From NCBI GenBank assembly GCA_034780895.1, contig JAUZTB010000076.1:33228878-33287024 (forward strand): a stretch of 58,147 nt of DNA, in the 5' to 3' direction. The notes under the pieces were generated by a model. It made no database searches. It was not told where the DNA came from and worked only from the letters and a program-made list of their open reading frames with translations. Positions 11,616 to 47,650 of this stretch are shown here, piece by piece (the stretch's first letter is position 1; every line of letters starts with the position of its first letter). The position numbers and the translations under genes are program-made. This DNA is from Rhynchobatus australiae. Its lineage: Eukaryota.

Positions 11616-14090
11616 GATGCTTACATATGACACTAATAATCTTCATACTTCTTTTCTCCAATATTACAAAAAATATATAAACCAACATCTAACTTATCTA
11701 GTATATTTCAAGCTTGTTCATTCTGCTGGAAGATATGCCTGCACTTTTATGCCACTCACTGTTTTGTAAGTGATGAACTTGATAGCAAAAAGAGAATATG
11801 GATCATAGTTTTTGTGCTTTTTCTAAAAATAAGCTTTTAAGAAATGATAACTGATAACTAGTACTATATTTTCAGGTAGTTATTTTTTGTTCAACACCTG
11901 AAATTTGAAGTAGGCTATTCAATCCCTTCTTTGGGATCAATACTGCAAAGGCAGAAGCTATCCAGCTCATTGTGTCAGCACTGGTTCTCTGAAGAGCTAT
12001 CCAATTAGCCTCACTTCCCTGCTACAGAACCATAGCATTTGCAGTTTTAAATCTCATATACTGGTTTTGTAATGGCATGATATTTAAATGAACCTGATAA
12101 TTCACAAATATCTGTCAATGTTTTTGATAGCATTTGAGCCACGATACGGAGCATCAAGGTTCAATTTTCTCTGTTTTGCTCGGTTTCCAATTTCAGTCAT
12201 CTCACTAAAGGAAGGCGCTGAGCACAAGTTAGCAAGGAGAAATGACAAGTCAGGGGAAGACTTCTCTATTCATCCCTACAATTATTCCATGATGACCAAT
12301 ACAAACTGACACTTGGGAACAGACCTCACACATGCAAGTACACCCCCTTCCCATGCCCCCACTATTATCATCATGATGTGGGAAAATCAGAAATATGTAG
12401 CAAGGAACTGTGCTGATAAATGAATGGGTAAATCTTAAAGGATGATGTAACAAAACATTACTGTTTGAACAGATGTTCTATTTTCAATGGAGAATACCAC
12501 CTTTCCGTATACACTCCCAAGGCCCTCCACCACCCCCACATTTGCTTTAACTTCAATTCCTTTTTTTGAAGTCAAGGAATGAAATTTCTGCCAATGATAA
12601 CTCAACTTGTTTAAATGAGCTTGACCCTTGTCCTTCCTGTGGGGAAATGACTTTCTTCCATTTGGTGACTCCCTTATTCCCTTTTCCAACTATTTTGAAG
12701 TTTCATTTTGTCTTAAAATGTTTCCAATAATGCAGCAAAATATGTAGCATAAATACTTTCCCCATTTCTCTCTTCAGGGGCATGACTGGCATCCATTAAA
12801 CATTTATTAATGGAATTTCCAGAATGAGAACCTACCATGTGGAGAACATCATTTTAAAAGCACGCATCCTTATACTTCCTTGGCACAACTTCAGTAACAC
12901 ACCTATCATAAACAAATATCCTTTAGTGATAACAACAGCTATACTGAAAGAGCGAATTAGTAGAGCATTGCATTCCCTTGGAGCTACCTCATTGACATCA
13001 CTACCGTGTCTTGCAGGGAGCATTCCATTGCTGGATGACAGAGTTCAGTAGAGCTCTTATCCAATCATGCCATTTTGGAGATTTGTTTCACTCCATTACT
13101 TTTTATTGGCAGATATTGGTGCTTACTCAGCACCAATTTTCAAAGCTCAGCACACTCCATTCAATGGTAAGAACTGTTCTGAACTACAACTTTCTGCACA
13201 CGAATTGAAACTAGTTGGTAAGAGTGATCTCTTTCATTCTACTGACAGAAATACCTACATGCTATCATATATATGAAAATGTAAATTGGTTTGAAGACTA
13301 TACCTATGAAAAGCAAAAGGCATGGGTTATGGTAATTTGGATATACCTCTTACCTCTGAGGAATACTTTCAAGCATTTTCAGAACGCTGAAGTTCACCTG
13401 CATTGATTTTTTAAAAATTCAGTTGTGGTTTTACATTTAAATCCCAGGGAACAGGATCTAATTGTATTCCAAATTCTGGAAAAATGTGGATTTATTCATC
13501 TTTAATTGCTAAAGTTGTAAATGTATGATAATTGGATGCTCCGTAGCATTAAGAGCTCAAACGTATCCAGCAGACAGTCACTTATCCTGATCATTTTGGT
13601 AATTTCTTAATTTTAGTAACAAGATGAAAGGAGATTTAGATGGGAAAATGATCTAGCTGAGACATGTGTCATTAATTATTACAACAACCAGACACAGCAA
13701 ATTATAATAGGCACATATAATGAAGTCATTGAAAGAGGTTTTCAAATATAGCTTGGATAAAAATAGTTGATTAAAAAAAAAATCACTGAATTGACAGAAA
13801 ACATGGGAAGTTACCAGCTGTTAACAAAACCATTGAATTTTTATTTTATTTTAAATCTTTAAAAGTCACCACTATGAATCCTTTCCCTCTTATTCTATAA
13901 TCAAACTGGAAAAAAGAACCACCACCTCTCAGTTTTATAGCCCACAATGCACACAAGGATTTTTATTTCCTAGAGTTTTTATTTTCTGTACTAGCAGTAA
14001 TTCAAGGCACCACACTACAAGCTACTTGGCCAAGACCCTAGACTCTTTAGTAGGAGCTACAGGGAAGGGCTCTCAGCGGCCGTGCCTCAC

Positions 14091-14219
14091 CTCTGGGTGC
14101 TGTAATCACAGGCCGATGATGATGTGTAAATGCCGTTCGAGGGGAGGTGGTCTGCGAAGGCGTGGGACTGCTGAAACCAGACTTCTCTGACTTCTTTAAT
14201 GTAGTAGGCGATGGCATTC
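14091..14219 (-). CDS. NFIA: NFIA internal coding exon (equivalent to human exon 7), 129 nt, phase 1-1
   Basis: The minus strand reads cattcttgccag|GA ATG CCA TCG ... CCC AGA G|gtgagg. It translates (G)[42 protein letters not shown], matching [47 protein letters not shown]. It splices in frame with the 47523-47650 exon. Confidence 0.97.
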
Positions 14220-14276
14220 CTGGCAAGAATGATTGATAAGTGCAATTTTAATAATGCTAGGTCATGAAACGACAGC

Positions 14277-14395
14277 CTGTGCAATGTGGAGGGGGAGGGA
14301 AAGGGGTGCAAAAGCAGCATGAGTGGGGGAAGAGAGAAGAGGGGGGAAAGGGAAGAGATTGCAGACAGAAAGAGTTAAGCAGCGCAAAAAGCATT
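14277..14395 (-). promoter_or_regulatory. Long polypyrimidine tract, AG-exclusion zone and distant branch-point candidate upstream of the 129-nt exon
   Basis: The minus strand has no AG between ~14395 and the CAG whose AG is at 14278-14277. A CTTAAC branch-like motif at 14379-14374 is followed by ~95 nt of C/T-rich sequence. Confidence 0.7.
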
Positions 14396-14989
14396 CTGCA
14401 TCATTCACGTTCTATGGTGCCTCAGCATGTTTACTTAGCAACTTCAAACAACATTCCTTGTCAGGTTAATAATAGAGAAAAGAGTATGCATGCAAGAAAA
14501 TGTTTTCAAGGATGAGCTACATTCATAAACCATGCTCCTGTATCTAACCTAAACCTGCAAATGAATTCCGTTGGATTTTGAGACTGAAAATGCCAGAAGT
14601 GTCAAACTTCCACTTGCTTCAAAGGATTCATAGAACATTTACTTAACACCATAATCAAGGATACTGAACAGCCATCTGGGAAACACTCAAAATACTCTAT
14701 CAAGGAGTTGGCCTCATAAACCATGATTGGCAGGCTACAATTTGGTAACAGAAGTCAAGTCAGAAGCGAAATGGTTTTTGTGCCCTGTGCATGAATGTGC
14801 AATATACTAATTAGCCCAGTTAAGTATCAGGAAATACTAGTTTTCTGGATATGTTTGAATTTTTTTTCTTAAAAGGGTTTTTATTTTGTGGGCAGTTACT
14901 TTTGAGGAAGTAGAGATTTACCCATATCCAGCTGTGCTGGGTAATGTAATCATACACACAACAATGTTATGGCGCACCGTTAAGCTTCA

Positions 14990-15295: not shown

Positions 15296-17014
15296 ATTTT
15301 CTGCATTTTCATTAGACATTATTTGACTAGTTCACTGGGATACCCTTATGTATAGAAACACCTACACAACAATAAGTAGATAACAAAGCTAGATTAAACT
15401 CATCTTTGCTGTTTTCAGTAATAGTCCGACTTTCATCCTTTCAGAGGAATAAAACAGACATCTTGCATCACTTTCAAATCTCTCTTTGTTTCAGTATAAT
15501 TGATAAACAATTAAAAATTCGTAAAACAAAAATTACTTGATTGCACATCTGTAGACTTCTGCTGTGTGACCTTTGACTTTGTGTGGTCACTAAAGAAATA
15601 TGTTTCCAGATCTGAAAGAAACAAGCAGCACAGAGGAATGGAGCAAATTTATATATAGATAAATATATATAATATGATAAATGTGCTTTAAATAACATCT
15701 TTAAGAGGAGTTTGACACTTTGGCATCTTGTGTGTTTATTAACCTTTTATCCAATTAAAAAACAAGTCATGCAACGCATCCACTGTTGACTGCCTTTTTA
15801 GATGTGTTTAACGTCTGGTGGATTTAGAGCACAATTGGTCACCGATATTCACACAGCAGTGAAAAGGTGACAGAATTAAGGTTTTTTTTGTACAGTTGAA
15901 CTTTACCTAACCTCAAATTCCATGGTATTAAAAATACTTTAAATGTTTTAGGTACAGACCAAATAGTCCGAAGGTAGCAAAGGGCAGGGATTTCTATCAG
16001 TCAGAGCAGTGTCACACCACTTCCTGATGATGTTAATACCAGATCAGTTCAACAATAAAACATACAACTTTGGAAGGTATTTACCTACGGTCACACAGAA
16101 GAAATCATCTGAAGTTTTAAACACTGCAACAAATTACAATCCTTTACAAATAGTAATATGCAGCTTGGTTGAACTAATTTATGATTCAGTCCTTTATTAC
16201 TGCAGCTTGTAGAATTCCCTTAAACACTTAATTATGCAAATGACAAGGTATTAATAATTGGCTTTTGAAAAGTGTCTTAACTTATTAAGTAATGAAGACA
16301 GATATTTCTTCTCCAAATTTGTGCACTATTATCTTTTAGAAATGCCAAATGAAAGCTATTTATGCAAAATACAAATGTAAGATTGCATTTTATTACAGAA
16401 TGTAAACCAGAATGTAAGGGAAAGTTTCTTTCTATGAATAAATATACAACAGGAAAATAGTATAGAGATAAATCAATTTGTGTTATGATTAATGCTCAGT
16501 TCCAAGATTATTATATCTAACAGATAATTGACAGTAAGTATTATAAAATTCAGCTGCCATATTCTGTGCAAGTCATTTCCCAATAAAAGATAAGCATAAA
16601 CAGAAGGATAAAAGGAAATGATTCTCTTCTTCCTTGGGGGCTAAGCATATGTGGCCTTTTGAGATGCTGTTCTCTTTATCTGTTACTCTAATAGCTGTTC
16701 AATCCAATACTTGCTGCAGATATTTGCAAAAATTGAACAGAGTGAAAAATAAATGATATTATCTTGAGGCCTTAGTAATTAAAATATGTTTGCTTCATAA
16801 AATTTATAGATTTGCAGCCAACCTGTACTCATCTTAACAAGTCATTTTTTTTGTCAAGAGCTTTGGAAAACTACACAACTATATACATTAAGGACAACAA
16901 AATATTACATTTCACCAAATCCATACTCATACCTATTGGCTGATCTGAAATTGCAACAGCTTAAAATTTACTTATATAGGTTCAGAGGTAATTATTCAAA
17001 TATACAGCATATTA

Positions 17015-47522: not shown

Positions 47523-47650
47523 CTGGCTCCACCTCATGCCAACCACTTGACTGACTGCCACTCCCTGGAGATCGACCTTGGTTGGTATAAAAGGGTTCTT
47601 CACCAGGGCTGTCCATTTCATCTTCCATAGATTTGTGGCGCTTTGCAGAA
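47523..47650 (-). CDS. NFIA: NFIA internal coding exon (equivalent to human exon 6), 128 nt
   Basis: The minus strand reads ttccccgttacag|T TCT GCA AAG CGC ... GAG CCA G|gtaagc. It translates [42 protein letters not shown](G), which matches my recollection of human [47 protein letters not shown]. Splice sites are canonical AG/GT. Confidence 0.97.

Follow-up and report, generated by a model that had tools for sequence, protein, structure and literature searches.

What is the intron in front of NFIA exon 7 in a ray for, given that it ends in three closely spaced AG dinucleotides? The sequence-only reading of this DNA had proposed a regulated switch into nonsense-mediated decay (NMD): branching at a distant CTTAAC would select an upstream CACAG acceptor, add 57 nt with a stop and lower the NFIA dose in chosen tissues or stages. 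The proposal is in keeping with the dosage sensitivity of NFIA, which is haploinsufficient in people (PMC4785547, excerpt). We regard it as possible, though doubtful, and as the main rival to the reading developed below. The analysis covered the window (the whole stretch of DNA presented, 58 kb out of a 2.23-Gb genome) together with RNA contigs, stored proteins and translated genomic frames.

Exon 7 and its three candidate acceptors

The minus-strand gene in the window is, by its exon 7 peptide, the skate/ray (batoid) NFIA: the 42 residues encoded by 14219–14091 are 100% identical to skate/ray NFIA, so that the host gene named earlier was upheld. Exon 7 (14091–14219, minus strand; phase 1-1) is 129 nt long, a multiple of three with equal phase at both ends, as in an in-frame cassette. 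Exon 6 (47523–47650, minus strand; 128 nt) is followed by the upstream donor CAG/GTAAGC after 47523. A further cassette missed by the first reading, exon 6b (15537–15611, minus strand; 75 nt, in frame), matches the insert of protein P0005 at 92% by tblastn, and its donor at 15536 is a second partner for the exon 7 acceptors. More NFIA exons follow exon 7 downstream, with exon 8 and later ones lying past the window start; the exon numbers used here are, we assume, those of the usual vertebrate numbering. Two irregularities of the assembly were observed. Near 33212600 of contig C76 in G000 (L008), an N run breaks exon 8, with a short duplicated word, an assembly quirk; near 34562400 of the same contig (L012), 1.3 Mb off and on the opposite strand, there is a match to NFIA residues 238–279, probably a misplaced piece.

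On the minus strand, the coding AG (14220–14221) sits 57 nt after the AG (14278–14277) of the upstream CACAG (14277–14281), a candidate rival acceptor in rays, and the segment between them (14220–14276) is 57 nt long. The middle AG (14258–14257) is also part of the first in-frame stop, TAG (14257–14259), and the second stop, TAA (14250–14248), lies inside a run of four A (14246–14250). Upstream of the rival acceptor, an AG-free zone of 117 nt (14279–14395) holds a C-rich pyrimidine tract (14373–14279; 81 of 95 nt are pyrimidines, 35 T and 46 C), with CTTAAC (14374–14379) at its 5' end. Further upstream stands TGCATG (14489–14494), which we take to be an RBFOX-type motif and which is unchanged in organism A. 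All of these motif positions agreed with the sequence-only reading when checked on the minus strand, and its predicted products were reproduced as well: the upstream AG adds 57 nt, keeps the frame and, joined in phase 1 to exon 6, reads G-C-R-F-M-T-TAG with the later TAA, and the middle AG adds 37 nt and shifts the frame. In rays this shift affects the whole of exon 7 and no fewer than 58 nt at the start of exon 8, beyond which there is an assembly gap. The frame that the middle AG would enter in rays is open for 95 codons (14374–14090, minus strand), from the tract through the 57-nt segment to the end of exon 7.

The branch-point consensus is yUnAy, and a scan predicted four such motifs in the region: A14375 in CTTAAC; A14320 in CACTCAT, inside the AG-free zone and 44 nt before the upstream AG; and, within 14235–14270, A14265 in GTTTCAT and A14237 in CACTTAT, 46 and 18 nt before the coding AG. 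With near candidates in reach of both AGs, splicing here does not require the distant branch point that had been invoked. That CACAG can be served from A14320, at a conventional distance, counts against a switch built on CTTAAC.

We then assessed how unusual these features are. AG-free intervals of at least 117 nt make up 6 of the 3672 AG-to-AG intervals on the minus strand of the window, and 95-nt stretches with at least 85% pyrimidine occur at only 2 places in the window; together, the tract and the AG-free zone are unusual. None of 19 NFI-family acceptors in this genome has so long a zone in front of it (maximum 72 nt), and the length exceeds the 100-nt flag for distant-branch exons (PMC1431707, excerpt), which favours the NMD switch, as does the position of CTTAAC at its 5' end, next to the tract. 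The paralogous exon 7 acceptor L018, the only one found in this genome, has a 25-nt AG-free zone without a long tract. The sole other long pyrimidine-rich AG-free stretch in intron 6 (35068–34949, minus strand; 120 nt, 80% pyrimidine) ends in GAG and has no known exon.

The stop, TGCATG and CTTAAC are each weak as lone signals, because each is common by chance in the window: 5006 of 7837 random 57-nt intron pieces (64%) hold an in-frame stop, TGCATG within 300 nt has a chance p of ~0.08, and CTTAAC occurs in 12 copies on the minus strand. ATTGCAC, with 4 copies on that strand, occurs twice here, just before the upstream AG (14285–14279) and 20 nt before the coding AG (14246–14240). An RNA structure masking an AG was rejected, with z-scores against shuffles of 0.63, −0.26, 0.38, −1.16, 1.36 and −0.56. 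The commonness of the motifs and the lack of RNA structure are what a chance arrangement in a neutral intron would predict, a reading that the conservation described below refutes.

The description of CACAG as a strong acceptor was overstated. Acceptor strength was judged by pyrimidine and T counts in the last 20 nt, not by MaxEnt scores. By this measure CACAG is preceded by 16 pyrimidines with only 4 T, below all 19 NFI-family acceptors (5–14 T, median 11), and the coding AG, with 14 pyrimidines and 8 T, lies inside the family range. U2AF65 favours U-rich tracts, and the upstream tract is T-poor, so that a contrast between a strong upstream and a weak coding acceptor is not established. The T-poor tract by CACAG and the 64% of random pieces with a stop both weigh against the NMD switch.

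Acceptor use in RNA contigs and gene models

The RNA evidence consisted of contigs from 6 of 18 listed RNA-type runs, the RNA label being a guess. Exon 7 contigs were present in 4 of the 6 runs (X1, X2, X3 and X9), from 3 coded organisms, with none in X4 and X14. In all four contigs the junction is at the coding AG, the third AG downstream of A14375, which is joined to exon 6 in X1, X3 and X9 and to exon 6b (15611–15537, to 14219) in X2, with loose contig ends, and all four continue into exon 8. The default product is not the one that simple scanning from A14375 to the first AG would give, and the uniform use of the coding AG argues against the NMD switch. A junction to 14276 or 14256 was found in none of the 6 RNA-type runs, where contigs drop rare forms and NMD would deplete such a message, so that minor use of these AGs may go unseen. 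The X1, X3 and X9 contigs begin with 30 nt of exon 6 and end with 28 nt of exon 8, a shape that we infer to be as expected if a path skipping exon 7 forks and rejoins in an assembly with 31-letter words; unspliced intron 7 would yield the same 3' contig end. In X1 and X2 the tract is also covered by unspliced contigs of low depth; these were not taken as retention or lariats, since they were search-selected and intronic contigs elsewhere occur in other runs.

Skipping of exon 7, as had been proposed, is annotated in 8 of the 227 stored proteins with exon 6, a set collected with exon 7 queries. These proteins come from Chiloscyllium, Narcine, two Danio species, Cyprinus, Carassius and Oncorhynchus, that is, from shark, ray and teleosts. 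The predicted poison peptide end was present in 0 of the 227, a set that, having been drawn with exon 7 queries, cannot be expected to hold it. Exon 6b was included in 81 of the 227, all of them from cartilaginous fish where named. The same exon 6/7 junction carries 17 extra residues of unrelated appearance in ray-finned fish and another 15 in catsharks, so that optional exons have arisen there more than once; neither insert has a convincing match in the window among the matches listed. A second TGCATG (15773–15768, minus strand) lies ~160 nt before exon 6b, so that both optional exons have one upstream.

Gene models from other lineages use other acceptors. Three RefSeq models from two Myotis (bat) species (P0126–P0128; XP_023610423.1, XP_036208802.1 and XP_036208804.1) carry 20 residues between exons 6 and 7; the insert starts with Gly-Cys, like the predicted ray extension, and is open, without a stop. 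After exon 7, each of the three finishes with an alternative last exon. The acceptor of the Myotis insert is probably homologous to the ray upstream AG, with moderate support. The homology score (ray 57 nt against the best back-translation) was reached by 2 of 200 random-intron controls, and also by 84 of 3674 AG-following 15-mers and 22 of 200 shuffled peptides; the same test on P0120 gave counts of 5, 14 and 22. The parrot model P0124 (A0A672U1W2) uses the middle AG, which there adds 36 nt and gives an in-frame 12-residue insert. The lemming model P0125 (+13 residues) was not counted, its insert being unlike the ray segment. The use of an upstream acceptor in the bat models supports the NMD switch, and the absence of a stop from the bat extension counts against it. 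The predicted poison outcome holds in the ray frame; it does not extend to the open bat insert, to the in-frame middle AG of the parrot, or to one batoid that has lost the TAG.

Conservation of the inter-acceptor segment

Among batoids, DNA run X21 was identical over 14001–14294. In X24, from a more diverged batoid (organism N), a conserved island around exon 7 (14005–14547, minus strand) carried 3 listed changes, and at most 11, in 543 nt, compared with 23–31 changes in the 242 nt of the flank (14548–14789); Fisher p ranged from 8e-14 to 9e-6, depending on the placement of 8 unlisted changes. One of the three listed changes lies inside exon 7. Another turns CTTAAC into CCTAAC, also found in X2 (organism B), and keeps the branch motif. 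The third, at 14259, abolishes the first stop, which becomes GAG in place of TAG, and with it the pyrimidine ahead of the middle AG; it is seen in one contig at a depth of 17.5. The TAA is not among the listed changes of X24 and so persists where the TAG is lost. The retained branch motif, in its one variant, and the persistent TAA favour the NMD switch; the loss of TAG in this batoid opposes it. Conservation of the 57-nt extension was borne out for the zone and the position of the upstream AG; for the stop outcome the picture is mixed, with the TAG lost but the TAA kept in this batoid. The possibility that the fourth A of 14246–14250 is an assembly error was rejected, as no indel is listed there in X21 or X24.

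Beyond batoids, we compared the ray DNA with protein-collection frames called on unspliced contigs, which run from the intron into exon 7; these are translations, not DNA, and their teleost or tetrapod type was assigned from the exon peptide. In P0123, whose exon 7 is of tetrapod type, 21 residues precede the exon, and 19 of the 21 ray codons need no base change; only the codon with the one-base indel and that for the first Met depart. These 21 residues recur unaltered in P0255 and with one difference in P0254, the downstream introns being different, and the His-Arg codons spanning the upstream AG are kept in all three. Six teleost-type frames (P0043, P0044, P0056, P0105, P0134 and P0135, three of which form one cluster) match the last 14 codons unchanged, apart from the indel codon. 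At the upstream AG codon the teleost-type frames have Ser, which is a single base change from the ray codon and would allow the AG to have been kept. Pro, Ser, Leu and His abound among the residues before it, in line with a translated C-rich tract, and conservation dies away immediately 5' of the first AG. Tetrapod- and teleost-type frames alike allow for both stop positions, and tetrapod-type ones for the upstream AG codon, a further point for the NMD switch. All of these frames imply three A where rays have four. In the tetrapod-type P0114 and P0120 only the last few codons are kept, suggesting that the element diverged in part of the tetrapods, probably mammals. Taken as translations, the frames point to conservation of the 57-nt zone at the DNA level as far as teleosts and tetrapods. 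An element of jawed-vertebrate age would be some 450 million years old. A metagenome scan for related host DNA gave one locus (L002) from 272 pattern matches, rejected as a chance bacterial-looking match.

With a p of at most 9e-6 for the batoid island and 19 codons without a required change relative to the tetrapod-type frame, a chance arrangement of motifs in a neutral intron retains next to no probability. The 57-nt region is real and under selection.

Selection need not act on splicing. The segment might be kept for another role, for example as a DNA enhancer overlapping the exon, with the AGs and stops riding along; NFI genes do carry conserved non-coding sequences (PMC3595034, excerpt), which may or may not include this one, and the batoid island also takes in 85 nt downstream of exon 7. 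We consider this unlikely, because conservation is deepest between the two acceptors and, in teleost-type frames, tails off shortly before the first AG, and because exon 7 is alternatively spliced and both extra AG positions are used in gene models. It is very unlikely that the segment is partly coding, with the middle AG opening a 12-residue in-frame insert in teleosts and birds that rays lost through a one-base insertion. The 12 residues are indeed identical in teleost- and tetrapod-type frames and included in the parrot model, but conservation extends at least 7 codons upstream of the middle AG, where coding is impossible, only 1 of the 227 stored proteins holds the insert, and batoids are frameshifted, one of them without a pyrimidine before the middle AG.

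Proposed control of exon 7 entry and comparison with known systems

Building on the observed motifs, the batoid conservation, the use of the coding AG, the annotated skipping of exon 7 and the presence of exon 6b, we favour the reading that the region is an ancient splicing-control sequence for cassette exon 7, together with a lesser, competing acceptor whose products would go to NMD in rays (probability about 0.55). U2 branching would then take place mostly inside the conserved 57 nt, at the predicted sites A14265 or A14237. Of these, A14265 is already downstream of the upstream AG, with the middle AG just 7 nt further on; since AGs closer than 12–15 nt to a branch point can be bypassed (PMC1431707, excerpt), branching there would leave the middle AG too close and select the coding AG. 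Branching upstream in the C-rich tract, at A14320 or A14375, would make CACAG the first AG met, and a stop would be gained. Premature stops more than 50–55 nt before a downstream junction trigger NMD. In the upstream-AG message, from either the exon 6 or the exon 6b donor, the stop would lie 166 nt before the next junction, at the 3' end of exon 7; the message is a likely NMD target, in agreement with the sequence-only reading, and this distance also speaks for the NMD switch. Under the favoured reading the NMD route would be a side exit, not the main output, and proteins on the tract and TGCATG would mainly set the rate of exon 7 skipping. High intronic conservation marks both skipped exons and alternative acceptors (PMC2018619, excerpt).

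The favoured reading and the regulated NMD switch differ in degree. Although the sequence is retained, its frame outcome appears to vary between lineages; selection on RNA signals would explain this better than selection on the stop. Against the favoured reading, the apparent conservation of the whole segment, including both stops in tetrapod-type frames, would fit a selected poison extension equally well, and NMD would hide a stop-containing isoform from protein databases and RNA contigs. As a conjecture, which we offer tentatively and would bet against, one acceptor as old as the jawed vertebrates may be a regulated poison exit that tunes NFIA dose via the distant branch point in rays, bony fish and birds, whereas in bats and some other mammals the same acceptor may have come to open a stop-free coding insert of 20 residues. 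If so, a poison splice site would have been recycled into protein diversity.

Distant branch points offer one comparison. An AG-free zone of at least 100 nt precedes 838 of 67,334 human acceptors, with one-half to one-fifth estimated to have distant branch points (PMC1431707, excerpt), and PTBP1 exon 11 and GABBR1 exon 23 are exons with distant branch points and a long AG exclusion zone (Gooding et al. 2006, PMC1431707, excerpt). What the present region shares with them is an alternatively spliced exon preceded by a long pyrimidine tract free of AG, with a branch-like motif at the tract's 5' end. Unlike in those exons, where the zone ends at the used AG, it ends here 57 nt before it, and the AG-free zone of the coding AG itself is 35 nt. 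NFIA is not named in the main text of PMC1431707. A closer likeness is to conserved alternative 3' splice sites 13–100 nt apart (Akerman and Mandel-Gutfreund 2007, PMC2018619, excerpt), with acceptors tens of nucleotides apart, high intronic conservation and few upstream AGs; the differences are that the upstream site is only a candidate in rays and that the frame outcome varies by lineage, with a stop in rays and an open frame in bats. Mouse Nfix exon 7 is naturally kept or skipped, and skipping frameshifts Nfix (PMC10241085, excerpt); exon 7 of NFIA is likewise optional but, unlike that of its paralogue, in frame. With inclusion and skipping annotated in several lineages and a conserved flanking intron (14005–14547), the region works like a conserved alternative-acceptor and cassette-exon region of the kind described in the excerpt of PMC2018619.

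This kind of system is well known. Poison exons and splice sites that couple alternative splicing to NMD lie in highly conserved regions, as in SR proteins and PTBP1. The ray segment shares with such events a conserved non-coding stretch whose inclusion would add a premature stop far from the last junction. It differs in its host, which encodes a transcription factor, and in a stop that bats do not retain; an NMD-sensitive isoform, and any feedback through it, are putative.

We found no paper on this NFIA acceptor region in the open-access literature; splicing databases or subscription journals may hold a mammalian event. The human branch-point table of PMC5378181, which lacks gene names, had no chr1 row for the expected hg19 position prefixes among the rows listed, and Nfia was not found in the searched supplements of PMC11188260 (all but file 13). 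A dual-coding region has been named for NFIA (bioRxiv 10.64898/2026.05.28.727796, excerpt) and may bear on this one. NFIA isoforms are described as poorly understood (PMC13637464, excerpt). A short conserved intronic element at the entry to exon 7 is a precise target for post-transcriptional control of NFIA output. Three AGs with a lineage-dependent outcome (stop, frameshift, +12 or +20 residues) also amount to a natural experiment on what maintains conserved poison sites, the stop or the RNA signals.

Downstream of the exon (14090–13845, minus strand), the exon 7 frame runs on into intron 7 for 14 codons and then meets a stop, and AATAAA occurs at 13983, 13967, 13850 and 13845 on the same strand. 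The skate-type protein P0205 ends in exactly this read-on peptide, and in the human P0129 and the Myotis models, too, the protein stops shortly after exon 7. NFIA forms cut short at this point may be widespread, and NMD could miss a stop in a message of this type.
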